Source: Escherichia phage vB_EcoS_HdK1
DNA length: 64,000 bases
Sequence record: MK373794.1
Strand: one strand, 5' to 3'
Shown here: in pieces, positions 1-64,000 of the stretch
Layout: each line of letters starts with the position of its first letter
Position numbering within the stretch: position 1 is the stretch's first letter
Translations under genes and position numbers: made by a program
Notes under the pieces: model-generated
Seen by the model: only the letters and a program-made list of their open reading frames with translations
Told to the model about the DNA's origin: nothing
Databases searched by the model: none

Positions 1-339
1 ATAAAGGGGTCTCGTGGGGTCGTCAGTAGACAACTCAAAAATAAAAAATCTTTATAAAATTTATATAAATACACACATATACACATTTTTACCTTATTTT
101 TCATGCACTTACCTCCTTTCATTTCGTATATTAAGCGACAATATACGAGCAATATAAGAAATATTTGTTGCGCAACAACGAGGCGCTCACAAGCTCGCGC
201 ACGCGCATAATGCGGGCACGCGGTCTAACACAAAAGAAAATTGAATTGCAAGCGATTTTTGCTGAGGTAACTCTCGAAGCGAAAGCGATTTGCGAGTTTG
301 AAATTTTGTAGCCCGAAAACGATTCTATTTTATGGTATA

Positions 340-660
340 AATGTCGGATTTTTCGGTGAAAGGTGGCTTTTCGGTGAGGTTGGGTGGCTGGGATCGGTGT
401 AACTGGTAGCCCATAAAGCGAAAATAGCCGCGAAAACGGGGCACGCAGCGCGATTAAATGGTTGGATCAGTGTAAGGGTGGCGGTGAGGGGGCGAAAATG
501 CCGCAAAATCGCTTACAGGGATGCAGGGAGTGGGCCGCTGTAAGGGCGTATAAGGCGATTAAATTGGAGTCTATGGTAATGTATGGAAGATGGATTTAGG
601 CTCTTAGAGCGCGAATGGTGGAGCTATGGGTGAGGAATATGTGGTCAGCAGGGTAGCGCG
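340..660. repeat. Non-coding G-rich region with reiterated CGGTGAGG / TGTAAGGG-like short motifs
   Basis: No ORF of 60 aa or more; repeated motifs such as cggtgaaagg, cggtgagg, cagtgtaaggg, ggcggtgaggggg, gctgtaaggg, gggtgagg read directly in the sequence. Confidence 0.5.
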
Positions 661-675
661 GGAGGTTATGCAGGT

Positions 676-714
676 ACAAAAACGAAAGCGCCCCGTTGGA
701 CTTCAACAGGGCGC
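676..714 (-). terminator. Rho-independent terminator candidate downstream of the leftward small-gene operon
   Basis: GC stem gcgccc / gggcgc (688..693 and 709..714) with 15-nt loop; on the minus strand it is followed by a T-rich tract (revcomp of 676..687). Lies just past the stop of CDS 738..986. Confidence 0.4.
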
Positions 715-737
715 GGATTGTATAATGCTTTTAGAAG

Positions 738-986
738 TTATTTACTAGTTAATAATACCGCCCAGGTATTATCTGGAAGCGTACCAACTCCGAGTATCTT
801 AAACTGAAGCGACTTGTTCTGCATGTTGTAGTTGTCGAGTAACTCCTGGGCAGCCGCAGCAGCGTTCGCTTCACCGTTCAGGTTGTAGTCGTTTGCAGTT
901 ATTGCACACATACCGAGACCGACCGCTTTGAAGCGCATACCTTTGGATTGAGTCGGTGCAAGTGCTTTAACATGGATAGCGTTCAT
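738..986 (-). CDS. hypothetical protein (82 aa)
   Basis: ORF with GGAGA Shine-Dalgarno-like sequence upstream of the ATG; balanced composition. Confidence 0.6.
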   Translation of the reverse strand: MNAIHVKALAPTQSKGMRFKAVGLGMCAITANDYNLNGEANAAAAAQELLDNYNMQNKSLQFKILGVGTLPDNTWAVLLTSK

Positions 987-1015
987 ATTATTTATCTCCG
1001 TTACAATTTGAAAGG

Positions 1016-1279
1016 TTAGCAGTTTTTTAACAGGTTGATGAAGCCCACCAGCGTGGACGCTGTTGCAACCAGGCGGCCCATAGTATGCAGTTCCGCGTAA
1101 ACTTTACCGTCGTCAAACACAGTTAAATAAACGTTAAGACCATTGCAACGGACGCGATATTTGCGCGAGTTATTACCAAAAGTTTCCAGCTCTGCGGTGA
1201 TAGTCGCAAGATTAGCTATACGTTTGCCGATAATGCGGCGAGTGATAGTGGACTGGTTTAATACTGTAGACATAATCAT
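1016..1279 (-). CDS. hypothetical small protein (87 aa); paralog of 2588..2893
   Basis: ORF with AGAGGAA RBS; N-terminal motif QSTITRRIIGKR shared with the protein at 2588..2893 (QSQITKRIIGKR). Confidence 0.6.
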   Translation of the reverse strand: MIMSTVLNQSTITRRIIGKRIANLATITAELETFGNNSRKYRVRCNGLNVYLTVFDDGKVYAELHTMGRLVATASTLVGFINLLKNC

Positions 1280-1341
1280 TTCCTCTGTTAACTATGCGAA
1301 GTGCATATTATTGCCCACTGTTACTATGGGCAATGTATATG

Positions 1342-1506
1342 TCACTCAGCGGACACATATTCTAACGCTTCTGATAGTGTAGCGAAGTAACCATCGCTCA
1401 CCAGATTAATAGCGTACTCAAGTTGATCGCGGGTCAGGTTGCGAAACTTGTTACGGATGTGATAGCAACGACCGCGATAAATAACCTGGAAATAGTTGCG
1501 TTCCAT
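1342..1506 (-). CDS. hypothetical small protein (54 aa; ORF-track version 1342..1662 is probably over-extended)
   Basis: Internal ATG at 1506 is preceded by AAGGGGA RBS; the longer ORF overlaps the well-formed gene 1517..1762 in another frame. Confidence 0.4.
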   Translation of the reverse strand: MERNYFQVIYRGRCYHIRNKFRNLTRDQLEYAINLVSDGYFATLSEALEYVSAE

Positions 1507-1516
1507 AATTATCCCC

Positions 1517-1762
1517 TTATGCAACGATGAACGCGTAACCGCTTTGATCCGGGAGTTCACCACCGGAAAGAATTTCAAACTCAACGCCCGCTTTATCGCT
1601 GAACTTTTTGATAAGCTCTTCCGCTGCGGCGCGGTGGTTGCCGTAAACACCAAGATCGTCACGCCACGTGATAGTCAAGGAGCCGTTCCAACCTGTTGCT
1701 TTTACGCGCGGGTTACGGGTGGCAGTCGGGTTCATGAATTTTGTGATGATAGCTTGAGCCAT
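1517..1762 (-). CDS. hypothetical protein (81 aa)
   Basis: ORF with GGAG RBS upstream; protein-like composition. Confidence 0.55.
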   Translation of the reverse strand: MAQAIITKFMNPTATRNPRVKATGWNGSLTITWRDDLGVYGNHRAAAEELIKKFSDKAGVEFEILSGGELPDQSGYAFIVA

Positions 1763-1767
1763 GATAA

Positions 1768-1953
1768 TTACTCCGGTAAAATTACAGTGACGTTAATATT
1801 TGCAAGGCGAGCGCACTCGCGGAAACCTTTTACATAAGCATCCATTTCGTCATAGGATGCGAAAGTTGCGTCCGGGACTGGTCCGTTGTTAATATTCACG
1901 CAATATTCGTGTTCGTCCAGGTCAACCCAACAAGTCAGAACGATAGTTTCCAT
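1768..1953 (-). CDS. hypothetical small protein (61 aa; start at internal ATG)
   Basis: ATG at 1953 preceded by GGAGGG RBS; ORF-track version extends to 1986. Confidence 0.45.
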   Translation of the reverse strand: METIVLTCWVDLDEHEYCVNINNGPVPDATFASYDEMDAYVKGFRECARLANINVTVILPE

Positions 1954-2031
1954 ATTATTTGCCCTCCGTATAATACAGACCCGCAACTATTGGAGCTCCG
2001 AAAACTAAGAAAGCTAATAAATAGAACATAA

Positions 2032-2511
2032 TTAGTTACCCCCTTTATTGTTGAGCCCGTTGAATTTACGCCATGCGTAGAATTCAATCGTTGCATTATT
2101 AATATTCCAACCATTAGCTTTCGCAAGGTCACGGACGTTACCAATAGTTGGCACACCATCAGGCAACATATTATCCAGGGCATTCCAAACGTCTGCGCAT
2201 TTACCTTTAATCGGGCGACGAACCCCGTTGCGCGTTTCGCTGCGCGTTTTGCTCTTGGCTGGAGCGACCGGAGCTTGTTGTGTGGTCACTTCCACGACAG
2301 TCGCTTTATCAGCTTCCACCAGATCGCTAGCTGCCTTATTAACCGCGCTTTCGCTGTACCAGTAGCGACCACCGTCTTCGTGCGGTTCCTGGTGAATAAA
2401 GCTATTTGCTGTCGCAGTGTCCACATCCAGAACCTTTTTTAAGGCACGGCGAGCGTTAGACATAGTGGCGAAGAAGCGAGCGTCTTTTGCTACGCGAGTG
2501 ATAGTAACCAT
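2032..2511 (-). CDS. hypothetical protein (159 aa)
   Basis: ATG at 2511 with GGAGA RBS; ORF-track version 2032..2526. Confidence 0.55.
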   Translation of the reverse strand: MVTITRVAKDARFFATMSNARRALKKVLDVDTATANSFIHQEPHEDGGRYWYSESAVNKAASDLVEADKATVVEVTTQQAPVAPAKSKTRSETRNGVRRPIKGKCADVWNALDNMLPDGVPTIGNVRDLAKANGWNINNATIEFYAWRKFNGLNNKGGN

Positions 2512-2587
2512 TGTGAATATCTCCATGTTGTTCTAGCGGATTGCTAGTGGGAGCCCACTGTTACAATGGGCAACCATTAGCACGCTA

Positions 2588-2893
2588 TTATTGTTGAATA
2601 GCTTTATCTATCATTGCGATGAAGCAGAACACAGACCAAAGGCTATTCGCTTGGCATACTGCGCGACCATACATTACGCTATAAGAGCTGACAGTACCGT
2701 CCTCGTTAATGCGAATATATAACGCGGTGCTGGAATACTTTTCGTTGCCCGGGAGCATTACTAAATACTCGTCGAAACCCCAATCCCCGTCGACTTTTTC
2801 CGCAGTAAGGCCCAGTTGGTGCAGTCGCTTGCCAATAATGCGCTTAGTAATCTGAGATTGGGACATGGAACGCGGTAAGTAGATAATGGACAT
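2588..2893 (-). CDS. hypothetical small protein (101 aa); paralog of 1016..1279
   Basis: ATG at 2893 with AGGGAGA RBS; shares the ITKRIIGKR N-terminal motif with 1016..1279; ORF-track version extends to 3010. Confidence 0.55.
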   Translation of the reverse strand: MSIIYLPRSMSQSQITKRIIGKRLHQLGLTAEKVDGDWGFDEYLVMLPGNEKYSSTALYIRINEDGTVSSYSVMYGRAVCQANSLWSVFCFIAMIDKAIQQ

Positions 2894-2968
2894 AATGCAA
2901 TCTCCCTTCGGGTGAGGCGGGCGCGGAACCCGTGTCCCGCTTAACAACCCCCTTAACCCTACACAGTT

Positions 2969-2997
2969 ATAGTATGACAACGGGGTATCAGATGCAA
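2969..2997 (-). promoter_or_regulatory. sigma70-like promoter candidate driving leftward transcription of 2893..738
   Basis: Minus strand reads TTGCAT-N17-TACTAT (revcomp of 2992..2997 and 2969..2974). Confidence 0.25.
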
Positions 2998-3073
2998 CTA
3001 TTATCTGCAATATTTTAGAACTTTTTTAGTTGTGTTTCATAATAATAACATCCGGGACTATGCGGTAGATGGT

Positions 3074-3147
3074 GTGCCGGAAATACCAGGTAGCGCGAGC
3101 GTGCCGAAAATACCAGGTAACAGCACGCGCCGAACATACCAGGTAGC
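3074..3147. repeat. Three 21-bp direct repeats (iteron-like), consensus GyGCCGrAmATACCAGGTArC
   Basis: gtgccggaaataccaggtagc (3074..3094), gtgccgaaaataccaggtaac (3101..3121), gcgccgaacataccaggtagc (3127..3147); spacing 27 and 26 bp; non-coding region. Confidence 0.6.
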
Positions 3148-3535
3148 ACATACATAGACAGCACATAGTGGGCAGGTGGATAGTAACAGATGCAATTATA
3201 CTGGACGGTACAGTATAGTCATGTAATAGATAGCATACTAATTAAATAAAAAATAATAACGCGTGTAACAATAAACAACGTTACAGTAGAGCGCGCAACA
3301 GTCACATGACGTAACAATCACCTCACTGACGATCACGGGACGTTATAGTAACGCCGCGGGGCGGCTCTTAGATCTCTGCCAAGGATTCTAGACGTAAACA
3401 TTGAATCGCCACTAGACTATTTACATCACAACCTCACTCCTCACACAATAATACATAGAATTTAAATCCGTATATAAATACTCGAGATAGTATCTACATA
3501 TTCGAGGATGAGTGCTCAATCATTGTAGGTTATAA

Positions 3536-4015
3536 ATGCGTATCAATTGGTGTGATTATTTCTCTTACGAAGATGGTAGACTTTACTGGAAGGCCAGTAG
3601 AGGAAGAATACGAGTAGGTTCAGAAGCCGGAAGCGAGGACCAACAAGGTTACATTGTGGTCAGGTTAAACGGGAAAGATTATAAAGCCCACCGCATCATT
3701 TGGGAAATGCACTATGGGCCGATACCAGAAGGAATGGAAGTTGACCACATTTGGCATAACCGAAAAGATAACCGGATTGAGAATCTGCGGTTAGTGACGC
3801 GTACAGGTAATGGGCGTAATCAGTCTAAATTTGCGACAAATACATCAGGTGTAACTGGTGTGAATTGGAATAGCCGGGCTGGTAAATGGAGAGCGGAAAT
3901 TTATGTTGATGGAAAGCATATATCTCTTGGTTTATTCACAATCTTTAATGATGCTGTCTTAGCGCGTAAATCGGCCGAGGCTAAGTATGGTTTCCATAAA
4001 AATCATGGCGAGTGA
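3536..4015 (+). CDS. HNH homing endonuclease with AP2 DNA-binding domain
   Basis: HNH motif EVDHIWHNRKDNRIENL; AP2-like segment GVTGVNWNSRAGKWRAEIYVDGKHISLGLF. Confidence 0.8.
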   Translation: MRINWCDYFSYEDGRLYWKASRGRIRVGSEAGSEDQQGYIVVRLNGKDYKAHRIIWEMHYGPIPEGMEVDHIWHNRKDNRIENLRLVTRTGNGRNQSKFATNTSGVTGVNWNSRAGKWRAEIYVDGKHISLGLFTIFNDAVLARKSAEAKYGFHKNHGE

Positions 4016-4075
4016 GCATGTTAATCAACTTGCGTATCCTGTTATAGTTATTCCGTTAACGTTAAAGGGGTTTAT

Positions 4076-4441
4076 ATGAACGAGAATATAGTTAAAGCCT
4101 GGTCTATCTTACGACCACAGCTGAAAGACGATCATGTCGCTTTTGTTTTATGTCCTGCTAACGAATATCGCCGGAAGCTCGAAGAAGTGTTGCGCGAAGA
4201 TCCTGAGTTCGTTCGCTGTGTGCAACTGTCGCGCGAGTCATCTGTGGTACAGTTTGATCGTTTCCATCTTCGTTTGGTTTCTCATCACAGAGCATCGTAT
4301 GAAGACACTGTTATTCGTACGAGTGGCTTTCATTGCGATATTGCAATTCTTGACTGCAAACTGGACATTGGGCAGAAACAGGATTTATATAATCTCGCTC
4401 GTGAACGTCATGGTGAATTGTTAATTGTGGAAGTGCAATAA
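4076..4441 (+). CDS. hypothetical protein (121 aa)
   Basis: ORF in a compact same-strand gene array; no recognised motif. Confidence 0.5.
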   Translation: MNENIVKAWSILRPQLKDDHVAFVLCPANEYRRKLEEVLREDPEFVRCVQLSRESSVVQFDRFHLRLVSHHRASYEDTVIRTSGFHCDIAILDCKLDIGQKQDLYNLARERHGELLIVEVQ

Positions 4442-4779
4442 TGGCCAAAGATATCGTTATTCCGAAAATGTATTGTCAGCTCCGTGATACTTTATTACAG
4501 AGCGGCTGGATTATTAGTCACAGCGATGTAAATGACACTTATATCGTTCTTATACCACCTGAAGGAACGATATCTTGCATTTTGCACTATATGCCCGAAG
4601 CAAAGACGGTTTATCCGAACGGGTCGTTCTTGCTTCGTCTGCGCTCCGACACATGGAAGATCCAGACTGATACCTGTGCAATTGACGAGAATACCAGTAA
4701 AGAGTTTATTCGCAAGCTAACTCAGCTGAATAAAATCTACGAGCATGTTAAATTTGATTTGTTTAAGGAAGTGTTCTAA
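4441..4779 (+). CDS. hypothetical protein (112 aa)
   Basis: ORF start overlaps the previous stop (ATGG/TAATGG style coupling). Confidence 0.5.
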   Translation: MAKDIVIPKMYCQLRDTLLQSGWIISHSDVNDTYIVLIPPEGTISCILHYMPEAKTVYPNGSFLLRLRSDTWKIQTDTCAIDENTSKEFIRKLTQLNKIYEHVKFDLFKEVF

Positions 4780-5219
4780 TGGTTACTATTAACGATCGCA
4801 TCACACATAAAACTCAGCCGACAATGATGTCTTGCATGGCAGCCTGTTTGGCTATGCTTCTTGACAGGGATGTTGAAGAGGTTGACAACGAATTCAGCCT
4901 AGACTACGTTCGTGGGTATATTGATGTTGCTACTTATCTATATCGACAAGGTATCTTTGCACAGCCACATATCACTGCCGGTATGCACCAAATATATCCA
5001 GGGCGCTTGTATCTTGCGACTGTACCTTCTTTGCAGTTACCTGGGCTTTTCCATCAGATCATTATTGACGCTCGTTTTGACGGTGTAACCGTATACGATC
5101 CAGCTAAAGGTCTGGAAGGGAAACAATATTATTCCTATGACCACATTGCAGAAGAAAACGAGCTGGCGTATCCTTTGCGGTCTTTCTTGATTGATTACGA
5201 AATTATATTACCGGAGTGA
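4779..5219 (+). CDS. papain-like cysteine peptidase, C39-like domain (putative)
   Basis: Q-x5-C signature QPTMMSCMAACLAMLL and a His block HQIIIDARFDGVTVYDPAKG resembling the C39 peptidase Gln/Cys/His arrangement. Confidence 0.45.
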   Translation: MVTINDRITHKTQPTMMSCMAACLAMLLDRDVEEVDNEFSLDYVRGYIDVATYLYRQGIFAQPHITAGMHQIYPGRLYLATVPSLQLPGLFHQIIIDARFDGVTVYDPAKGLEGKQYYSYDHIAEENELAYPLRSFLIDYEIILPE

Positions 5220-5222
5220 TTC

Positions 5223-5576
5223 ATGAGCTTGCAACGTTTTGACAATGCAGAACTCGCGTGTGAATTTGCAAAGCGCAAGTTCGCTAAAACAGGTACGCCG
5301 CGATGCGTGCACGCGGCTATTGGGCAAAATGGGGCAAAGTATTGGTACGTTGGTACAGTAGCTCAGATCAAGCGAAGATTCGCGACTACGCTCGAAATGC
5401 GCCGGCTTGGGTCCCCTACACTTGTACGAAACAGGCACTTGGATAAAGAGGAAATTTATCAATTTCTCAGAAATTACACTGGTAAAGAGAATAGATTTCA
5501 GGTTGCAGCGAAAGAGTTTAATATTGGTCTTTCCACTGCTTATAAAATTTATCACATATATGGGCGTTTAATATGA
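5223..5576 (+). CDS. hypothetical protein with C-terminal helix-turn-helix-like segment
   Basis: C-terminal KEFNIGLSTAYKIYHIY resembles an HTH; otherwise unassigned. Confidence 0.45.
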   Translation: MSLQRFDNAELACEFAKRKFAKTGTPRCVHAAIGQNGAKYWYVGTVAQIKRRFATTLEMRRLGSPTLVRNRHLDKEEIYQFLRNYTGKENRFQVAAKEFNIGLSTAYKIYHIYGRLI

Positions 5577-6076
5577 CCGCAATTGCTTATCGTAATGGGA
5601 TATTAGCTGTAGATCGACAGGTTACATGGGGTAATATTGCAACGACTACGAATAAAGTTCATACTATCAGTATTCCAGGGATTGGTCTGTGTCTTGTTGC
5701 CATGTCTGGTAAACTACGTGCTGTAGATGACATTGTAGAACATTTACAAACTACGTCACGTGGACGCAAAGAACCTTTCTCAGATTTAAACCCAGATTCG
5801 CGTTATGGTATTGCTGTGACGCAGGAACTTGTCGTATATCCTATCTACGGGGATGGTAAATTAGGTCTACCGGACACTAACGAATTTATTGCGGAAGGTA
5901 GTGCGTTTGAGTTCTTGATGGGTGCAATGGCGGGAGGTTGCACCGCCGAAGAGGCTGTACGACTGGCGTGCGTATACTGCGACAGTTGTGGTCAAGGGGT
6001 TAAGTTCTATGACGTAGCTTATACTCTAAAGTGGCGCAGTGTAAAATCGAGGAGAAACCATTTTGAAGAAGCCTAA
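5573..6076 (+). CDS. HslV / proteasome beta-subunit-like Ntn hydrolase (putative)
   Basis: N-terminus MTAIAYRNGILAVDRQVTWGN parallels HslV [25 protein letters not shown] (Thr nucleophile directly after Met); later IAEGSA resembles HslV IAIGSGG. Confidence 0.5.
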   Translation: MTAIAYRNGILAVDRQVTWGNIATTTNKVHTISIPGIGLCLVAMSGKLRAVDDIVEHLQTTSRGRKEPFSDLNPDSRYGIAVTQELVVYPIYGDGKLGLPDTNEFIAEGSAFEFLMGAMAGGCTAEEAVRLACVYCDSCGQGVKFYDVAYTLKWRSVKSRRNHFEEA

Positions 6077-6254
6077 GACTGGTCTGTTCCTTTGTGTTGG
6101 TGGACCTTTTGACGGTAAGCGTATACGCTTAACAACATCAGATTTGTATCCAAGTTCTTCCGTTTTCTCTGTTCCATCCTATAAAAACGGTGAGAAGGGG
6201 AAATACGTCTGGAATGATGAAATTCGAAACAGTGTAATCTGGAGAACATCGTGA
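6063..6254 (+). CDS. hypothetical small protein (63 aa, TTG start)
   Basis: GGAGAA RBS 8 nt upstream of TTG. Confidence 0.4.
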   Translation: MKKPKTGLFLCVGGPFDGKRIRLTTSDLYPSSSVFSVPSYKNGEKGKYVWNDEIRNSVIWRTS

Positions 6255-6478
6255 GTGATTCTACAAATGCGCAATTAGCCGCTGCAAGAGTGTATATGCG
6301 CGGAGCTGCCGCTGAGATTGATGCTTTGCCACAATTTGAAAAGCATGTACAGCAACTCGAAGATAAATTTAAGACTCTTAAAGATCTAGGGGATACGAAA
6401 GATGCTATAGCCTTTCTTCTTGCTATCCAATACTTGTCTATGGGGGTTGGTGACAAAGTATGTTCCTTAGAAGAATAA
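6251..6478 (+). CDS. hypothetical small protein (75 aa, GTG start)
   Basis: GGAGAA RBS upstream of GTG; coiled-coil-like composition. Confidence 0.4.
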   Translation: MSDSTNAQLAAARVYMRGAAAEIDALPQFEKHVQQLEDKFKTLKDLGDTKDAIAFLLAIQYLSMGVGDKVCSLEE

Positions 6479-6990
6479 TTGGTATTGTTGCACCTTGGAT
6501 ACCACTTGTCATAATTGTTATTCTAGCCAACTGGGCTTATGACAATGCCATAGAATCAGCTAGAAAGGAGGGTTTCGATGCCGGTGTGTCGTACCAAAAA
6601 GAAACTCAGAAAGCGGTTGATTTCGAGGAGGAGAAACGAAGAGCGTATGAGAAAGACACTATCGAACGTCAGTACAGATCTCGTATTGAATCTTTGGTTG
6701 CGATCTTAATAATTATCGCGCTACTAATGACAGGTTGCACAACGAAATCGCAACCGTCCGTAAGTACCTCGGTGACGCTACCGGCCCTCAGCCCGACAGC
6801 AAGACAACCGCCCAGATCGCCCGTGTGCTCACCGAGCTGTATTCAGAAAGCGTCACAGAATACAGACAAGTGGCAGAAGAGGCTGAAAAGTATCGTATTG
6901 CCGGCGAGCAGTGCGAACTACAGTATGATGCAATGCGAAATCCGCGTAAAGAAAAGTGATAAACTGCAAAGTCCTTGCCGGGTTGCGTAA
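6460..6990 (+). CDS. spanin-like locus (N-terminal TM domain; lipoprotein-box segment; coiled-coil C-terminus in another frame)
   Basis: N-terminal TM helix IIGIVAPWIPLVIIVILANWAY; signal-plus-lipobox LVAILIIIALLMTGC followed by Pro-rich tail; an overlapping frame (6690..6959) encodes a charged coiled-coil segment. Confidence 0.4.
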   Translation: MFLRRIIGIVAPWIPLVIIVILANWAYDNAIESARKEGFDAGVSYQKETQKAVDFEEEKRRAYEKDTIERQYRSRIESLVAILIIIALLMTGCTTKSQPSVSTSVTLPALSPTARQPPRSPVCSPSCIQKASQNTDKWQKRLKSIVLPASSANYSMMQCEIRVKKSDKLQSPCRVA

Positions 6991-7081
6991 CTAAACGTTC
7001 AATCTTAATTGCACATAATTGATTGTGTACATGTGATAATTCAACTATGCTCTATTCGGTTTAACTGAATGGAGCTTTTTT

Positions 7082-7516
7082 ATGACTGTGCAACCACGAG
7101 GTATCCGGAATAACAATCCGGGAAATATTCGTTGGGGTGATAATTGGAAAGGTCTTGTTCCTGAAAACAAACGGACTGACCGTTCCTTCTGTCAATTTAT
7201 CGATGTAAAATACGGTATTCGCGCCATTGCGCGTATTCTACTAAACTACCGCAACCGCGAAGGAATGAAACGTGTCGGAAACAAAGGGATTGACACTGTA
7301 CGGGAGATTATTTCGCGCTGGGCTCCGCCGAATGAAAATAACACTGAAGCCTATATTCAATCTGTGGCTAAGGCTTGTGGTGTTGGTGCAGAACAGCCGA
7401 TTTCAGTGACCGATGATAAAATCATGCTTGCAATCGTGAAAGCGATTATCAAACATGAGAACGGTGTGCAACCTTATTCTGATGAAGTTTTGCTCGCGGG
7501 TATTCACATGGCATAG
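7082..7516 (+). CDS. hypothetical protein; candidate endolysin by position only
   Basis: 144-aa soluble protein between the spanin-like and holin-like genes; conserved-looking motif RNNNPGNIR; no catalytic family confidently recognised. Confidence 0.3.
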   Translation: MTVQPRGIRNNNPGNIRWGDNWKGLVPENKRTDRSFCQFIDVKYGIRAIARILLNYRNREGMKRVGNKGIDTVREIISRWAPPNENNTEAYIQSVAKACGVGAEQPISVTDDKIMLAIVKAIIKHENGVQPYSDEVLLAGIHMA

Positions 7517-7529
7517 TAAGAGGTTATAA

Positions 7530-7838
7530 GTGTCGCCGAACTGGGATTGGAATATAGTTTTTATTCTCACTGCCATTGCGATGGTAGGGGGTTCCCTTGG
7601 CTACGCTGCAAGAACCCATGATGCTAAAGAAAGGTTCAGACTTAGTGTCTTCATTCAAGAGGGTGCTTTTTCTGCATTCTTTGGTTTCTTGATAGGTGTA
7701 ATTAACGTGGAACATGGTGTCTCACTGGGGCTCAGTGGGGCGTTCATAGGCGTGTTATCTTGGTCCGGTTCAAGAACCATGCTAAAGTTTCTACGGAGAA
7801 AGACAGAAGCATGTGACCGAGAAAAGGAAAGAGGTTGA
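7530..7838 (+). CDS. holin-like membrane protein (putative)
   Basis: Three predicted hydrophobic helices and a charged C-terminus (RRKTEACDREKERG); AGAGG RBS before GTG start. Confidence 0.45.
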   Translation: MSPNWDWNIVFILTAIAMVGGSLGYAARTHDAKERFRLSVFIQEGAFSAFFGFLIGVINVEHGVSLGLSGAFIGVLSWSGSRTMLKFLRRKTEACDREKERG

Positions 7839-8077
7839 TTATGCGTCACTTCATCAATGATCTTCTTATATTGTGTAAGAAACCGCGATTGCTTTTCATC
7901 TATATGATGATTGGACTTGCACAAATTGGAGTCAGTGCTATCGCCATTGATCAGATGCACAAGAAACACAGGGCAAACCTGCAACCTTCAACACCACCTG
8001 TTTATGTGGTCAATAAGGTTGAACAAATCAAACAAGACATCCGGGAGATAACGTACATTCCTAAAGTTGAAATGTAG
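7835..8077 (+). CDS. small membrane protein (single TM; possible antiholin or spanin component)
   Basis: 80 aa with central hydrophobic helix LLFIYMMIGLAQIGVSAIAI. Confidence 0.4.
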   Translation: MIMRHFINDLLILCKKPRLLFIYMMIGLAQIGVSAIAIDQMHKKHRANLQPSTPPVYVVNKVEQIKQDIREITYIPKVEM

Positions 8078-47524: not shown

Positions 47525-48445
47525 TTACTGTGCAGCGTCATCGCCTTCGGTGGAACGTTTCCACGGTGGAGTCTTGGTCTGAGCTGCTTTAGCGATATCG
47601 TCCTGGACTTCAGGTTCTGCATGGTTAGCAGTACCAGTGTTCTGAGCTTGAGTTTGCGGTTGCTCCGCTCCAGGCTGTACCTGCTGAGTTGCCCAGTTAG
47701 GCTGCTGTGTGGCTTGTTGCTGCGGCTGCTGCGCACCAGTAGCCCACGGTTGAGATTGTGCCGCGCTGTTAAAATCAACTGTTCCAGACTGCTGCTGTTG
47801 CTGTACCGGCTGCTGCGGCTGTTGTTGCTGCTGCGGCTGCTGGAACCCCTGAGTCTGAGGTTGTTGCTGCTGTTGCTGCGGCTGCTGCCCAAATGCGCCC
47901 GGGAAACCCTGCTGCGGTTGCTGCTGTTGTTGCTGAGCACCACCGAACGCACCGCCACCAAATGCTGGGGATTGTGCTGCCGCTGCCGGAGTTGATTTAG
48001 GCAGGTTAGCCATATCCGCCTTAGTTGCGTATACAACACCTTCCATATTATCAATTGCTTGATAAATCTGAGGTTCGTTGTTTGGCTCATAGCCGGGTTG
48101 CTGACGAACTTTCACTTTCAGGTTAAACGGGATACCGTGCAGTTGTTCAGTATCGTTCCAGACTGGAACTTTAACAGCACGAGACAGCTCTGCCAGTTCT
48201 TCCATTGCAATCTGTACAGCGACAGGGTTCGCGTTCTTGACGTTGTAACCGCCAAACATTACACGACCAGCAAAATCACCCTGCATAATCTTAAACTGAA
48301 GATTCAGACGCGCACCGCCTGGAGTTTTAGTCGGTTTGATTTCAGAGTTTACAATCTGAACAACATACCAACCAGCGGGCATCAAGCTGTTGTGTTGACG
48401 CTCTGCGTGTTGTCCAGCGTTAAATTGCATTCCTAAACCGGCCAT
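47525..48445 (-). CDS. single-stranded DNA-binding protein-like, with Gln/Pro-rich low-complexity tail (putative)
   Basis: About 130-aa N-terminal domain followed by a Q/G/P-rich linker; next to the Sak4-like ATPase gene; lacks the canonical acidic tip. Confidence 0.35.
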   Translation of the reverse strand: MAGLGMQFNAGQHAERQHNSLMPAGWYVVQIVNSEIKPTKTPGGARLNLQFKIMQGDFAGRVMFGGYNVKNANPVAVQIAMEELAELSRAVKVPVWNDTEQLHGIPFNLKVKVRQQPGYEPNNEPQIYQAIDNMEGVVYATKADMANLPKSTPAAAAQSPAFGGGAFGGAQQQQQQPQQGFPGAFGQQPQQQQQQPQTQGFQQPQQQQQPQQPVQQQQQSGTVDFNSAAQSQPWATGAQQPQQQATQQPNWATQQVQPGAEQPQTQAQNTGTANHAEPEVQDDIAKAAQTKTPPWKRSTEGDDAAQ

Positions 48446-54696: not shown

Positions 54697-55746
54697 TAAC
54701 TTAATAACTTCGTTCATTCTCTCAATATCTACCAAATAACACTTCATTCTCGGTGGTGTAAACTCTGCGCCGAAGAAATTTGAAAAGTCCATTGGCCTCA
54801 TCTCGGTAAGAACTTCCATAGACATCAAACCATAGATTGTATTGTCTATGACCTGTAGGATGTTGTCATTTCTTGTCTGTTTAAAAGCCTTGAACTGGCG
54901 ACATACTGTGCATAGATCACTCCTTGTGACAATAAATGCGTCCTTAAACATGGGAAACCGTTTATATACACCAGCTTTAACTTCACCATCCAAGAACTTC
55001 TTAATGGAGTTCAGCATTATCTTCTCACGACTTGTACTGTCCGTAGAACCAATCTGCCCACTGTTACGCTTCTCTAAGAAACGCTCGTTACCCTGATCGA
55101 TAAATGACTCAGCCCAACGATAATGTTCCATAGTGACAACAGGACGCTCACTGTTATCTGCAACAGCAAGAAGAGAAGCTATACGCAATACCTTCAACGC
55201 CTTCCTTGTGTACATCTGACGAATTACTTCGTCTTGCACCTGCTCACCATCATTGCCGCTGTTCAGGAACTTCGCAACAATATTATCAAGATTATCAAAC
55301 GCTTCGTGTACCTCTGCTTCCATTTCAACATAACACGGAGCAGTCCCTGACATAATACGCACAGCTTGTTTATAGATAGCTCCAATAGTGCGCAGTATTG
55401 CTTCTGGATATTCCAGGAGCATACTCTTATTCATCAATGGGCGGTTAGCTGTACATTCCCATGCGATAATACGGGACATGAAACCACTCGACATCATGCG
55501 GTCATCTACGTTCCCGTAAAATTCATCTGGTGTTGTTTCACCTGCAAAACTATACGCCTTAACCTTACCGCCAGCAGTCGTATTATCTTTACTAGAGTGC
55601 TTTGAACCACCAGAGAAAGCATAGAAATGCCCCTTGTCATAAAGGGAAAGCATTTCATCCATAATGTCTTTAGCTTTACCGACTTCCATCTTACCGTTAC
55701 GGAAAAAATGCACCGACTTCAGTCTTATAGTTAATGGATGAGCCAC
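54694..55746 (-). CDS. primase-polymerase / helicase-like replication protein, C-terminal fragment (multiply frameshifted gene spanning 54694..57260)
   Basis: 350-aa ORF continuous in sequence with upstream fragments; frame break next to an 8-A homopolymer at about 55881..55888. Confidence 0.45.
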   Translation of the reverse strand: MAHPLTIRLKSVHFFRNGKMEVGKAKDIMDEMLSLYDKGHFYAFSGGSKHSSKDNTTAGGKVKAYSFAGETTPDEFYGNVDDRMMSSGFMSRIIAWECTANRPLMNKSMLLEYPEAILRTIGAIYKQAVRIMSGTAPCYVEMEAEVHEAFDNLDNIVAKFLNSGNDGEQVQDEVIRQMYTRKALKVLRIASLLAVADNSERPVVTMEHYRWAESFIDQGNERFLEKRNSGQIGSTDSTSREKIMLNSIKKFLDGEVKAGVYKRFPMFKDAFIVTRSDLCTVCRQFKAFKQTRNDNILQVIDNTIYGLMSMEVLTEMRPMDFSNFFGAEFTPPRMKCYLVDIERMNEVIKL

Positions 55747-55767
55747 AAGACATAACGGACGTATCCA

Positions 55768-56352
55768 TTATGACATCCTTGCGCAATGCAGCATCAGACG
55801 CATAGGTACTTGTATCCAAGACACGTTCGATACCAAATATCTGCTGACCGTCTTGACCGCCATAATTGGATACTTGAGAAAAAAAAGAATAGTTTCAATG
55901 TTGGAGCGAAACGCTTCTTTACCAATACCAGAACGTGCAATTAGTACAAAGTAGTTATTCAAACCACTTCGTGTGACTGTGTTCCACGCCTTACCGCACA
56001 TACCACTAAATAAAGCAAGCGCAGACAGAATACTAATGTCTTTAATAGGCAACAAGCTCGCTTTATACATATTACGCGCAACCTCGCCCATAAAGCCCGG
56101 AGGCCAAGCCAAACCGTCTGCCTGCTCTTCAGTGTAATTACCATCTGTAGTCAACACTTCTTCAGGTGGGCGTTCTGGTGTAGTTGCTTGACGTAGTTTT
56201 TCCGTGCGCTCTATAGCTGCATTAACGTTATTCTGAACTATCTGCATAAGTCCCATAGATTTAACATGGGCATCGTAGCGATAGTTGCGAATCATTCTAT
56301 CCAGGTGGTACGGACGTTTAATTTTTTCACCAGGCATACGACGGGGAATCAT
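55768..56352 (-). CDS. primase-polymerase / helicase-like protein, central fragment
   Basis: Segment ...NYFVLIARSGIGKEAF then out-of-frame tail; overlaps the upstream fragment in another frame. Confidence 0.4.
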   Translation of the reverse strand: MIPRRMPGEKIKRPYHLDRMIRNYRYDAHVKSMGLMQIVQNNVNAAIERTEKLRQATTPERPPEEVLTTDGNYTEEQADGLAWPPGFMGEVARNMYKASLLPIKDISILSALALFSGMCGKAWNTVTRSGLNNYFVLIARSGIGKEAFRSNIETILFFLKYPIMAVKTVSRYLVSNVSWIQVPMRLMLHCARMS

Positions 56353-56474
56353 CGTAACGGCTACTCATTGGTGAATACATGAATAGACGTCTTACCTGGA
56401 AATTGTACTTACTCTTAAAGCAAAGAAAGTCAATTAATGCAAATTCTGCTTCAGACTGAGAAGGGAAACAACGT

Positions 56475-56855
56475 TCACCGATTAGAAGTATCAACTTCTT
56501 CAGCTCTCCAACGACCCTCCCATAGCTGCTTAAACAATGTTCCGTTTTCTTGTTCGCACAACTGAATATAGACATCCTGGTCTTCCATTGCATATGGGTC
56601 GTTACTAAAATCTTCTTCAGTAAGTTCCAGCATTTGGAAGCCATCAGACTCATTAATCTCACTCATCTCAGACATAAGTTGGATGAATGAGATTAGCGAT
56701 ATACCCTTCGCTTTCACTGCCTGGAGCACCAGACACAGTGCGCGGGAGTAAAGTAACATCCCAGTGATCCCCTGTACAGATAATAAAACGATACTGGGAA
56801 TACACTTCCACACCGTCACGGCGCTTACCAGCCTGAGGGGATGGAATAAATCCAT
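56475..56855 (-). CDS. primase-polymerase-like protein, internal fragments (at least 3 frames used between 56327 and 56871)
   Basis: Protein-like segments alternate between frames, e.g. TEISRSGDGLHTWIYSIPSGW then AGKRRDGVEVYSQYRFII then SEMSEINESDGFQMLELTEEDF. Confidence 0.35.
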   Translation of the reverse strand: MDLFHPLRLVSAVTVWKCIPSIVLLSVQGITGMLLYSRALCLVLQAVKAKGISLISFIQLMSEMSEINESDGFQMLELTEEDFSNDPYAMEDQDVYIQLCEQENGTLFKQLWEGRWRAEEVDTSNR

Positions 56856-56894
56856 GTGTGCAACCCATCACCGCTTCTGGAAATTTCCGTATAG

Positions 56895-57260
56895 CTATGG
56901 AAACGATTCAACAATCTTCTTATATCGCTCACCAGCAACTTTCTTTTCCATTTCAGACATGGTATCTTTAATGTCCATGTCGATACAACAGAACGGGTCA
57001 CTTGGAAGTAGATAGAAACCTAAACGCAAGTTATGACCAATCTCGTTATAATAACGAACGCAGCGTTCAGCATCTTCAAAAGACATAAGTAAATGCAGGT
57101 TAGACGGTTTCTTATCATTACCGTCTTTACGAAGTGGGACCATATCCCCTAAATCATCGTCCCATACATAAGGTTGTTTTTCTGATGATGTACCCGGATG
57201 GAAACCGCAGACAGCCCACTGTTCGTATTGTTTAATTTCTTGAGGAAAAAGTTCCAGCAT
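56895..57260 (-). CDS. primase-polymerase (AEP superfamily) N-terminal fragment
   Basis: Prim-pol-like pattern EQWAVCGF...KKP...LMSFEDAER...GHNLRLGFYLLPSDPFCCIDMDIKD (DxD motif); downstream SGDGLHTW motif in a shifted frame. Confidence 0.5.
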   Translation of the reverse strand: MLELFPQEIKQYEQWAVCGFHPGTSSEKQPYVWDDDLGDMVPLRKDGNDKKPSNLHLLMSFEDAERCVRYYNEIGHNLRLGFYLLPSDPFCCIDMDIKDTMSEMEKKVAGERYKKIVESFP

Positions 57261-59772: not shown

Positions 59773-60393
59773 TTACGCTCCAAACTGATCAATGTATTCA
59801 ATGAGCTCTTGCAATTCTTGCTGTAACTGCACATTACCACTATTATTCGTCTGAAGTCTAACGAGGCGTTCCTTGATATGTGCAATGTGGTTAGTGCCCA
59901 TCCGACGCTTCTGTACATCACACCAGCGAACAACACCATCTTCAATATATGCACGACGGGCTTTACCACGCGGGTATCGCAGCGGCGCCGAATTTCACAC
60001 TTATCGCCCACCCACTTAAAGCCCAGGATCATAACAGCGTTACCTTCCGTATCAGGACACACGTCAAAACAACTGTTGAACCCTTTACTGCGCATATACT
60101 CGTCGAGCGGAATCACCTTATCAGGCGACAACCATTGATACCCGAAGTAAATATCGACAGTGAACACCGTACCCAACATCGGAGCCGACCAGCACATATA
60201 CATCCGCCCGTCATCCAACTTCTTGACCGCATTCGGCCCGCAACACGAGGCCAGCCGCCTTCCACGCTTTGACCACATTAATCGTGTTGTCCTGCTCCTG
60301 AAAGATTGCGTCTGCCTGCATATATGTAGGCGCGTCCCAGCCCGAACATTTCCTTTACATGAGCATTAGTGATTTTAACCTTTTGATTGCGCA
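59773..60393 (-). CDS. hypothetical early protein, frameshifted (at least 2 frame changes)
   Basis: ATG at 60393 (MRNQKVKITNAHVKEMFGLGRAYIYAGR...) stops after 38 codons; protein-like sequence continues in two other frames down to a stop at 59773. Confidence 0.4.
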
Positions 60394-60446
60394 TAACCTC
60401 ACCTTTGATGATAATAAATCGATTAATTTTGAAATTCAGTTGCCGG

Positions 60447-60474
60447 TTTTATGTTTATTTTACGCAATGTGTTT
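60447..60474 (-). promoter_or_regulatory. sigma70-like promoter candidate for the leftward early operon
   Basis: Minus strand reads TTGTAT-N16-TAAAAT (revcomp of 60469..60474 and 60447..60452), about 50 nt upstream of the ATG at 60393. Confidence 0.35.
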
Positions 60475-60600
60475 TGCAATACAATATTGATATATTTTGT
60501 TTTTGCATTGCAATGTTTTTGTATTGCAAAAATTACAACAGTCTGAAGGTGAGAAATTGCAAATTTATAAAGATTGGTGAAAAAATGCACAATTTATAAA
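60455..60600. repeat. Cluster of TTGCAA / TTGCAAT palindromic half-sites and duplicated AATTTATAAAGATT element
   Basis: ttttgcaatacaat, tttgcattgcaatg, tgtattgcaaaaa, aaattgcaaattt; aatttataaagatt occurs twice (about 60562 and 60590). Confidence 0.5.
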
Positions 60601-60692
60601 GATTCAGCAATATACGAAACGGCGAAGCGAAGTGTATGAAAAATAAGGGAAAATTTCGAGAGTTGGGAGGTTTGTAGTGATTTATATTATTT

Positions 60693-63600
60693 ATAAAGGG
60701 GTCTCGTGGGGTCGTCAGTAGACAACTCAAAAATAAAAAATCTTTATAAAATTTATATAAATACACACATATACACATTTTTACCTTATTTTTCATGCAC
60801 TTACCTCCTTTCATTTCGTATATTAAGCGACAATATACGAGCAATATAAGAAATATTTGTTGCGCAACAACGAGGCGCTCACAAGCTCGCGCACGCGCAT
60901 AATGCGGGCACGCGGTCTAACACAAAAGAAAATTGAATTGCAAGCGATTTTTGCTGAGGTAACTCTCGAAGCGAAAGCGATTTGCGAGTTTGAAATTTTG
61001 TAGCCCGAAAACGATTCTATTTTATGGTATAAATGTCGGATTTTTCGGTGAAAGGTGGCTTTTCGGTGAGGTTGGGTGGCTGGGATCGGTGTAACTGGTA
61101 GCCCATAAAGCGAAAATAGCCGCGAAAACGGGGCACGCAGCGCGATTAAATGGTTGGATCAGTGTAAGGGTGGCGGTGAGGGGGCGAAAATGCCGCAAAA
61201 TCGCTTACAGGGATGCAGGGAGTGGGCCGCTGTAAGGGCGTATAAGGCGATTAAATTGGAGTCTATGGTAATGTATGGAAGATGGATTTAGGCTCTTAGA
61301 GCGCGAATGGTGGAGCTATGGGTGAGGAATATGTGGTCAGCAGGGTAGCGCGGGAGGTTATGCAGGTACAAAAACGAAAGCGCCCCGTTGGACTTCAACA
61401 GGGCGCGGATTGTATAATGCTTTTAGAAGTTATTTACTAGTTAATAATACCGCCCAGGTATTATCTGGAAGCGTACCAACTCCGAGTATCTTAAACTGAA
61501 GCGACTTGTTCTGCATGTTGTAGTTGTCGAGTAACTCCTGGGCAGCCGCAGCAGCGTTCGCTTCACCGTTCAGGTTGTAGTCGTTTGCAGTTATTGCACA
61601 CATACCGAGACCGACCGCTTTGAAGCGCATACCTTTGGATTGAGTCGGTGCAAGTGCTTTAACATGGATAGCGTTCATATTATTTATCTCCGTTACAATT
61701 TGAAAGGTTAGCAGTTTTTTAACAGGTTGATGAAGCCCACCAGCGTGGACGCTGTTGCAACCAGGCGGCCCATAGTATGCAGTTCCGCGTAAACTTTACC
61801 GTCGTCAAACACAGTTAAATAAACGTTAAGACCATTGCAACGGACGCGATATTTGCGCGAGTTATTACCAAAAGTTTCCAGCTCTGCGGTGATAGTCGCA
61901 AGATTAGCTATACGTTTGCCGATAATGCGGCGAGTGATAGTGGACTGGTTTAATACTGTAGACATAATCATTTCCTCTGTTAACTATGCGAAGTGCATAT
62001 TATTGCCCACTGTTACTATGGGCAATGTATATGTCACTCAGCGGACACATATTCTAACGCTTCTGATAGTGTAGCGAAGTAACCATCGCTCACCAGATTA
62101 ATAGCGTACTCAAGTTGATCGCGGGTCAGGTTGCGAAACTTGTTACGGATGTGATAGCAACGACCGCGATAAATAACCTGGAAATAGTTGCGTTCCATAA
62201 TTATCCCCTTATGCAACGATGAACGCGTAACCGCTTTGATCCGGGAGTTCACCACCGGAAAGAATTTCAAACTCAACGCCCGCTTTATCGCTGAACTTTT
62301 TGATAAGCTCTTCCGCTGCGGCGCGGTGGTTGCCGTAAACACCAAGATCGTCACGCCACGTGATAGTCAAGGAGCCGTTCCAACCTGTTGCTTTTACGCG
62401 CGGGTTACGGGTGGCAGTCGGGTTCATGAATTTTGTGATGATAGCTTGAGCCATGATAATTACTCCGGTAAAATTACAGTGACGTTAATATTTGCAAGGC
62501 GAGCGCACTCGCGGAAACCTTTTACATAAGCATCCATTTCGTCATAGGATGCGAAAGTTGCGTCCGGGACTGGTCCGTTGTTAATATTCACGCAATATTC
62601 GTGTTCGTCCAGGTCAACCCAACAAGTCAGAACGATAGTTTCCATATTATTTGCCCTCCGTATAATACAGACCCGCAACTATTGGAGCTCCGAAAACTAA
62701 GAAAGCTAATAAATAGAACATAATTAGTTACCCCCTTTATTGTTGAGCCCGTTGAATTTACGCCATGCGTAGAATTCAATCGTTGCATTATTAATATTCC
62801 AACCATTAGCTTTCGCAAGGTCACGGACGTTACCAATAGTTGGCACACCATCAGGCAACATATTATCCAGGGCATTCCAAACGTCTGCGCATTTACCTTT
62901 AATCGGGCGACGAACCCCGTTGCGCGTTTCGCTGCGCGTTTTGCTCTTGGCTGGAGCGACCGGAGCTTGTTGTGTGGTCACTTCCACGACAGTCGCTTTA
63001 TCAGCTTCCACCAGATCGCTAGCTGCCTTATTAACCGCGCTTTCGCTGTACCAGTAGCGACCACCGTCTTCGTGCGGTTCCTGGTGAATAAAGCTATTTG
63101 CTGTCGCAGTGTCCACATCCAGAACCTTTTTTAAGGCACGGCGAGCGTTAGACATAGTGGCGAAGAAGCGAGCGTCTTTTGCTACGCGAGTGATAGTAAC
63201 CATTGTGAATATCTCCATGTTGTTCTAGCGGATTGCTAGTGGGAGCCCACTGTTACAATGGGCAACCATTAGCACGCTATTATTGTTGAATAGCTTTATC
63301 TATCATTGCGATGAAGCAGAACACAGACCAAAGGCTATTCGCTTGGCATACTGCGCGACCATACATTACGCTATAAGAGCTGACAGTACCGTCCTCGTTA
63401 ATGCGAATATATAACGCGGTGCTGGAATACTTTTCGTTGCCCGGGAGCATTACTAAATACTCGTCGAAACCCCAATCCCCGTCGACTTTTTCCGCAGTAA
63501 GGCCCAGTTGGTGCAGTCGCTTGCCAATAATGCGCTTAGTAATCTGAGATTGGGACATGGAACGCGGTAAGTAGATAATGGACATAATGCAATCTCCCTT

Positions 63601-64000
63601 CGGGTGAGGCGGGCGCGGAACCCGTGTCCCGCTTAACAACCCCCTTAACCCTACACAGTTATAGTATGACAACGGGGTATCAGATGCAACTATTATCTGC
63701 AATATTTTAGAACTTTTTTAGTTGTGTTTCATAATAATAACATCCGGGACTATGCGGTAGATGGTGTGCCGGAAATACCAGGTAGCGCGAGCGTGCCGAA
63801 AATACCAGGTAACAGCACGCGCCGAACATACCAGGTAGCACATACATAGACAGCACATAGTGGGCAGGTGGATAGTAACAGATGCAATTATACTGGACGG
63901 TACAGTATAGTCATGTAATAGATAGCATACTAATTAAATAAAAAATAATAACGCGTGTAACAATAAACAACGTTACAGTAGAGCGCGCAACAGTCACATG
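60693..64000. repeat. Window-end exact duplication, copy 2 (identical to 1..3308); contains duplicate copies of the small minus-strand early genes
   Basis: Same as copy 1; all ORFs at 61430..63702 duplicate those at 738..3010. Not re-listed individually. Confidence 0.9.

Follow-up and report, generated by a model that had tools for sequence, protein, structure and literature searches.

Three palindrome-centred repeats beside the DNA end of Nonagvirus coliphages form a candidate operator-like cluster

A 64,000-nucleotide stretch of Escherichia phage vB_EcoS_HdK1 (record MK373794.1), referred to here as the window, carries three 21-bp direct repeats, each built around the 9-bp palindrome TACC-W-GGTA, in the non-coding hub from which the two arms of the genome diverge. 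We tentatively consider this array a cluster of sites for a DNA-binding protein, sequence-specific and probably dimeric, that would modulate transcription from the early hub, and we hold this assignment with slightly less than even confidence. A first-pass annotation had offered two functions for the repeats, namely replication origin or regulator-binding operator. An operator would fit better than an origin because the core is palindromic, the setting is one of early promoters and the array is dispensable in a natural variant. The origin, on the other hand, is weakened by the same variant, by GC skew, by the helical phase of the spacing and by the lack of a recognisable initiator. In kind, the array would be an ordinary operator-like cluster, although its detail was previously undescribed: the publication on the related phage 9g and its GenBank record give two predicted promoters only in this region and do not mention the repeats (PMC4276943).

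Sequence and position of the array

The pattern GYGCCGRAMATACCAGGTARC matches exactly three times near the left end of the window (Table 1) and again at positions 63766, 63793 and 63819, and no further site was found on either strand of the 64-kb window when up to three mismatches were allowed. Given that only 0.04 matches are expected by chance and that none of 100 shuffled sequences reached six, the triple repeat noted in the first pass is real and non-random. The repeats start 27 and 26 bp apart, in agreement with the spacing initially recorded, and their consensus is gyGyyGrAmATACCAGGTArC (21 bp). Within the 60.7-kb genome unit, TACCWGGTA and even the 7-mer ACCWGGT occur exclusively in the array. 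A genome-wide search thus confines both the 21-mer and the 7-mer to this locus, rather than revealing copies scattered through coding regions. Although the duplicate reported at 63766..63839 is present, it is not a separate second locus. Positions 1-3308 of the window are 100% identical to positions 60693-64000, and the second array is simply part of the right-hand copy of a ~3.37-kb direct terminal repeat (DTR), a copy that the window end truncates.

Table 1. Features of the array, the control hub and the terminal repeat, in window coordinates.
Feature	Position	Strand	Remarks
Left DTR copy	1..3367		Inner boundary after ...GCCGCGGGGCGGCTC (between 3367 and 3368); right copy from 60693
g164, 164-aa DTR protein	2032..2526	-	Candidate DNA-binding protein; adjoins hub
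GC-rich leader and ribosome-binding site of first leftward gene	2894..2960	-	Invariant in 12 phages
P_L1, putative leftward promoter	2969..2997	-	TTGCAT (2997..2992), 17-nt spacer, TACTAT (2974..2969); start ~2961
Motif GTATCAGATGCAACTAT (also as GTAWCAGATGCAAYTAT)	2985..3001, 3183-3199	+	Two copies flanking array, 198 bp apart
Repeat 1, GTGCCGGAAATACCAGGTAGC	3074..3094	+	Palindromic core TACCAGGTA at 3084-3092
Repeat 2, GTGCCGAAAATACCAGGTAAC	3101..3121	+	Core 3111-3119
Repeat 3, GCGCCGAACATACCAGGTAGC	3127..3147	+	Core 3137-3145; 18/21 positions match single unit of L023
P_L2, predicted leftward promoter	3195..3222	-	ATGACT, 16-nt spacer, TATAAT; 10/12 consensus matches; start ~3187
AT-rich stretch, ~25% G+C	3225..3262		Between P_L2 and DTR end; 78 bp from array
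Three repeats, right-hand DTR copy	63766..63839	+	Offset 60692, 0 mismatches over 3308 bases

The array lies between a leftward gene (2591..2893) and a rightward gene (3536..4015, + strand) whose product is an HNH endonuclease (Pfam HNH_3, E=1.2e-22) of the HNH/AP2 homing-endonuclease type. The original placement of the repeats, in non-coding DNA between an HNH gene and the leftward genes, was therefore correct. Small ORFs that cross the array exhibit no codon-position bias (variable sites distribute 8/6/5, whichever frame is considered), the start ATG of one of them is absent in JenP2 and SP8, and the 26-bp spacing breaks the reading frame. These results lend no support to a protein-coding repeat. 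Because each core contains CCWGG, we also considered a Dcm/EcoRII target, but this idea was dropped because CCWGG is not depleted (115 sites compared with 80-105 expected).

Conservation and distribution

The region is 90-97% identical to the corresponding region of Nonagvirus (9g-like, Queuovirinae) coliphages. When 12 distinct Nonagvirus hubs are aligned, ATACCAGGTA does not vary in any of the three copies, with the sole exception of BRET (GGTG), and the 5' half of the unit (GyGyyGrAm) is variable. Information content, calculated from 45 copies in 15 array-bearing genomes, is highest at A-ATACCAGGTA-nC. Only 1 of 30 core positions varies, compared with 11 of 44 positions in the remainder of the array (Fisher p=0.02). 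The contrast is weaker when the cores are compared with the entire hub (71 of 445 positions variable; p=0.07), as the hub is generally well conserved, with 84% of its positions invariant overall. All 15 array-bearing genomes carry exactly three cores at 27- and 26-bp spacing, and a point change in copy 1 was observed in one metagenomic contig.

Among the genomes searched, the full triple array is restricted to Nonagvirus. No equivalent was found in Seurat, Vid5, PSTCR4, two Klebsiella phages or six metagenomic relatives whose g164 proteins are 62-68% identical to that of the window, and paired-core matches that emerged outside the genus in a scan of IMG/VR were discarded as coding Gly/Pro-rich repeats. 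However, the hub of one relative, L023, carries a single unit, GTGCCGAACATACCAGGTGCC, that shares 18/21 positions, and its g164 homologue is 62% identical to that of the window. Because L023 has this single unit in its hub, we infer that the unit is older than the genus and was later triplicated. Other lineages have different repeats in the same location. The Klebsiella phages carry short runs of GGGTA and GCCTTACAGC. Sphingomonas phage MMDA13 (PMC7472734), a distant relative that shares the C-terminal domain of g164, likewise has a large non-coding hub, in which ~6 copies of CGTTAACC(A/T)T with the palindromic core GTTAAC lie upstream of the operon of the g164 homologue, although these repeats differ from the array in sequence, in number of copies and in spacing (24-117 bp).

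Architecture of the control hub

According to the 9g annotation, the genome has a single divergent hub, the ~640-bp non-coding stretch that includes the array. The leftward arm comprises small DTR genes followed by genes for the primase-helicase, ligase, deazaguanine pathway and DNA polymerase, and the rightward arm comprises small genes followed by lysis, terminase and structural genes. The HNH gene is specific to this phage, given that relatives diverge from ~3390 onward. It replaces their first rightward gene, and the divergence begins ~22 bp past the DTR end.

The signature of the leftward promoter P_L1 is found once per genome unit, compared with 0.06 expected occurrences. It is present in all Nonagvirus members, and also upstream of the first leftward gene in relatives L022, L024, L026 and L027. 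In the isolate JenP1 the signature has been re-created in non-homologous sequence (TTGCAT-17-TATTAT). With this phylogenetic support, we take P_L1 to be a real promoter, although one recognised from sequence. The second leftward promoter, P_L2, coincides with a BPROM prediction in the 9g record and resembles the promoter-like units that L022, L026 and L027 each carry as a tandem set of three. The array is situated 77 bp upstream of the P_L1 -35 element and 48 bp downstream of the P_L2 -10 element. Relative to the putative start sites, the repeat centres fall at about -180, -154 and -127 of P_L1 and at about +46, +72 and +99 of P_L2, such that a P_L2 transcript, if made, would cross the array. 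A weak predicted rightward -35 element at 3155 adjoins copy 3.

Several other elements of the hub deserve mention. The leader of the first leftward gene is retained in FritzHoffmann despite a different downstream gene, and it may be a translational control element, although the z-score of its fold is only -1.6. The two copies of GTATCAGATGCAACTAT overlap the P_L1 -35 element and the -10/start region of P_L2, and the block AGATGCAACTAWTATCT within this motif is conserved even in the Klebsiella-phage outgroups. An inverted repeat, TATACTG-N7-CAGTATA (3197-3217), occupies the P_L2 spacer. Both the flanking motif and this inverted repeat may represent further protein sites. The 9g authors noted a temperate-like layout of the hub, suspected partial repression of its closely spaced promoters, found that read coverage is ~1.5-fold higher over the early genome half and changes abruptly at the terminus itself, and reported a stable phage-host carrier state (PMC4276943).

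The terminal repeat and the physical DNA end

Two independent determinations place the physical DNA end at the same base. The HdSG1 record has an exact DTR of 3363 bp that ends with ...GCCGCGGGGCGGCTC, followed by TTAG, and its last base is homologous to window base 3367. In 9g, the read-start hotspot at nt 28,243, which its authors took to be a physical end of virion DNA (PMC4276943), maps to this base as well. The array therefore lies 220 bp from the physical end and, because it is within the DTR, it is present at both ends of packaged DNA and once per replicating unit. The 9g authors further propose that the hub-side end enters the cell first (PMC4276943).

The left DTR boundary has a distinct organisation. 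A 1.15-kb non-coding, AT-rich zone (60279..61429) spans the terminus at 60693. It contains three direct and two inverted copies of ATTTATAAAG at the terminus, one of which is cut by it, and a tandem pair of TGTTTTTGYATTGCAA. A 24-nt inverted repeat (60630-60653 and 60779-60802) brackets the left end. As a candidate for a role in end recognition or replication, this zone, which also contains the cumulative GC-skew minimum (60403), is preferable to the array.

Further features of the DTR were recorded as separate observations. ACCTCAC is found on both sides of its end (3320-3326 and 3431-3437), and just inside this end lies the block ATCACCTCACYGAYGATCA, which is conserved across genera. The other leftward genes, at 36-60 kb, have a negative GC skew that the DTR (1..3300 and 60693..64000) lacks; its skew is clearly positive over about the first kb (cumulative value from ~0 to ~85) and nearly flat thereafter. 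Its leftward genes (738..2893) include two paralogous pairs, phrog_13865 (2591..2893 and 1019..1279) and phrog_3199 (1520..1762 and 741..986), and a 21-nt hairpin motif, GCCCACTGTTACWATGGGCAA, is located in two intergenic gaps (1313-1333 and 2553-2573). The paralogous pairs and the hairpin motif point to a putative cassette duplication internal to the DTR.

A natural variant without the array

In JenP1, which is recognised as a Nonagvirus isolate, the core is missing altogether. Its hub aligns with the window across the leader and again from ~3178 to beyond the DTR end, but the ~200 bp that hold the array in the window are swapped for ~700 bp of unrelated DNA that includes an extra leftward gene. 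No iteron-like repeats were detected in the replacement segment. In addition to the P_L1 signature, JenP1 retains the P_L2 region, the AT-rich stretch, the GC-rich leader and the terminus region, of which the terminus-proximal ~190 bp are almost unchanged. Since JenP1 is viable without the array, the repeats are unlikely to serve as an essential origin or packaging site. Their dispensability fits an accessory regulatory module. JenP1 also carries another homing endonuclease within its DTR-equivalent region.

A tentative operator-like reading

If the array is a cluster of operator-like sites, each TACC-W-GGTA core with its partly conserved 5' flank would take one dimer, and three sites at 26-27 bp from centre to centre could permit cooperative or graded occupancy. 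From its position at about +46 to +99 of the P_L2 transcript, the occupied array might act as a roadblock. From about -127 to -180 of P_L1 it could tune that promoter, and it would possibly also modulate the weak rightward promoter adjoining copy 3. The sites lie at both ends of virion DNA and, if the proposed order of entry (PMC4276943) is correct, they would be accessible inside the cell from the earliest stage of DNA entry.

Several characteristics of the locus support this reading. The motif is unique in the genome, has a dyad core and a fixed architecture, derives from a unit that appears to predate the genus, occupies the hub between P_L1 and the predicted P_L2, and is dispensable in JenP1. 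The partial repression of the hub promoters that the 9g authors independently suspected (PMC4276943) points the same way. Moreover, the locus is non-coding and exhibits no RNA covariation, and the hubs of other lineages have repeat clusters of their own. Other characteristics count against it. No phage gene is linked to the array, the core-versus-hub contrast is marginal, and the promoter positions are predicted. The sites overlap neither the -35 nor the -10 hexamer of P_L1, unlike classical operators. In addition, adjacent sites are 2.5 turns apart and so face opposite sides of the helix, an uncommon arrangement for simple cooperative dimers.

Among known systems, the array appears most like a multipartite operator of the lambda O_R/O_L type, in which three similar dyad sites with short spacers (23-24 bp from centre to centre) occupy a divergent control region. 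The resemblance extends to the three dyad-core sites, the short spacers and the position of the hub between two arms. However, the array has a wider spacing (26-27 bp), only 9 bp of each directly repeated 21-bp unit are palindromic, Pfam and PHROGs revealed no CI/Cro-like gene beside it, and the phage is virulent and has its own replication genes. Because the P_L1 hexamers are not overlapped and no cognate repressor was detected, we do not file the array as a member of the O_R type.

The early promoters A1-A3 of T7 lie near the leading end of its DNA, with no palindromic site array among them. In T5, small early genes are located in a long terminal repeat whose inner end is non-coding and rich in repeats. 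The hub resembles the former in that the host-type promoters P_L2 and P_L1, or three tandem units and P_L1 in relatives, are near the first-entering end and point inward, but differs in having a palindromic array. It resembles the latter in the small early genes of its DTR and in its repeat-rich, non-coding inner end. Nonagvirus is not known to use transcription-driven or two-step DNA entry. The palindromes lie 220-290 bp from the first-ejected end and, via the terminal repeat, are present at both ends. That they form a terminus-proximal control point, at which a host or very early phage protein bound to the three palindromes gates early transcription or DNA entry, strikes us as distinctly improbable. 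Such a control point, if real, would amount to a repressor-operator switch operating in a virulent phage that has no lysogeny genes.

Candidate binding proteins

The protein that would bind the array may be phage-encoded or a host factor, and we consider these equally possible. Of the phage proteins, g164 is a candidate by virtue of weak winged-helix-like matches in its C-terminal domain, although no Pfam domain was found in it and sequence searches of the PDB with g164 and g117 returned no meaningful match. Pfam revealed no DNA-binding domain among the DTR and early rightward proteins, and of 15 hub-proximal proteins Pfam and PHROGs together named just two, the HNH endonuclease and an HslV-like peptidase. 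Pfam does not support the labels 'TetR' and 'sigma factor' of the 9g record. In the Klebsiella phages, the annotation as 'late transcriptional activator' derives from a weak PHROG match (E=2e-4), and the window counterpart aligns at E=0.085 only. No early gene was lost together with the array when JenP1 was compared with the other phages, and no gene tracks the unit when L023 is compared with the other relatives. Operators of Fis, IHF, CRP, LexA and GntR-type proteins were also compared by eye with the unit, and none of them fits on inspection.

Alternative explanations

Replication-origin iterons are an unlikely alternative, in which an initiator bound to the three repeats would melt the AT-rich DNA at 3225-3262, perhaps aided by transcription in the hub. 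Direct repeats of ~21 bp with an internal dyad, a 25% G+C stretch ~80 bp away, an intergenic hub between divergent transcription units and one array per genome unit are all features that an origin might display. Lambda-type origins have four iterons inside the initiator gene O and an AT-rich flank. The array is similar in its ~20-bp direct repeats, internal symmetry, 5-6 bp spacers and nearby AT-rich DNA, but it has three copies instead of four, none of them lies within an initiator gene, and the searches did not reveal an O-like initiator. Indeed, no Rep- or O-type initiator was recognised among the hub-proximal proteins, and the primase-helicase matches only DUF3987. The genome also encodes AAA_24 and DUF669 proteins, which are commonly assumed to act in recombination and which, on that assumption, would permit origin-independent replication. 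Furthermore, the viable congener JenP1 lacks both the array and any substitute repeats. GC skew, suggested in the first pass as a way to evaluate an origin, does not point to the array. The cumulative curve reaches its lowest point at 60403, close to the left DTR boundary and at a distance of ~2.7 kb from the nearest array copy, and its maximum at 34457, although such a strand-switch criterion is weak evidence in phages. Plasmid iterons are spaced in helical phase, at multiples of ~10.5-11 bp, whereas the 26-27 bp spacing of the array (~2.5 turns) is out of phase and is fixed in all genomes. We judge it even less likely, indeed very unlikely, that the array is a terminus signal, either for terminase recognition and formation of the DTR end or for a DNA-entry checkpoint near the first-ejected end. 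Lambda cosB, with its R sites, and the first-step-transfer stop region of T5 are the models for such a role, and the three repeated sites recall cosB. The proximity of the array to the doubly determined end, at 220 bp, and its presence at both virion ends would be consistent with this role. However, JenP1 preserves the terminus-proximal ~190 bp and not the array, and the blocks near the end that are conserved across genera (ATCACCTCAC... and the AACGCCGC hairpin) exclude it; the Klebsiella-phage outgroups likewise conserve the terminus region and not the array. The left boundary, moreover, has its own set of direct and inverted ATTTATAAAG motifs. We know of no report of two-step DNA entry for these phages.

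The repeats might instead be weak tandem promoters or polymerase traps, or a repeated RNA motif in the P_L2 leader, but we regard this as quite unlikely. On the leftward strand, the units read as the extended -10-like string TGGTAT(T/G)T(T/C), with TGnTAnnnT-like strings in copies 2 and 3, and some relatives have three tandem promoter-like units in the same interval. Conservation is nevertheless symmetric about TACC-W-GGTA rather than centred on a -10 hexamer, positions 4-6 of which vary, and a spacing of 26 bp is too tight for independent polymerases. As for an RNA motif, the array does reside inside the predicted P_L2 leader, but fold z-scores reach only -1.7 to -1.9 and 0/33 pairs are compensatory. 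A scan of positions 1-8000 against Rfam (E<=1) gave no match. Finally, the array may have no present function and may simply reflect a local triplication in the hub whose apparent conservation is due to the close kinship of the sampled Nonagvirus genomes. The 84% invariance of the hub, the marginal core-versus-hub contrast (p=0.07) and the fact that JenP1 manages without the array are compatible with this explanation. Against it, the cores are better conserved than the array spacers and flanks (p=0.02), copy number and spacing are constant in 15 genomes, the unit persists in L023 despite only 62% identity in g164, and the palindrome is otherwise absent from the genome. We also consider the absence of function very improbable.

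Implications and additional observations

Members of Nonagvirus are common coliphages with deazaguanine-modified DNA and are represented in the BASEL collection, but we know of no account of the timing of their early and late expression. The array is the most distinctive cis element of the single Nonagvirus control hub, and it is situated beside the physical DNA end. Under the operator-like reading, identification of the protein that binds it would open a route to the early/late switch and perhaps also to the carrier state of 9g, and JenP1 offers a ready natural control.

Two observations from elsewhere in the window are included for completeness. The primase-helicase gene (54697..56978, - strand) exhibits four frame changes (tblastn frames -3, -1, -2, -1, -2), whereas the 9g counterpart is a single ORF of 755 aa; these changes mean either that the record contains indel errors or that an essential gene is degraded. 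At 47715..47940, a leftward ORF contains imperfect triplet repeats rich in TGC/TGT (GCTGCTGTTGCTG...), probably a low-complexity coding stretch.
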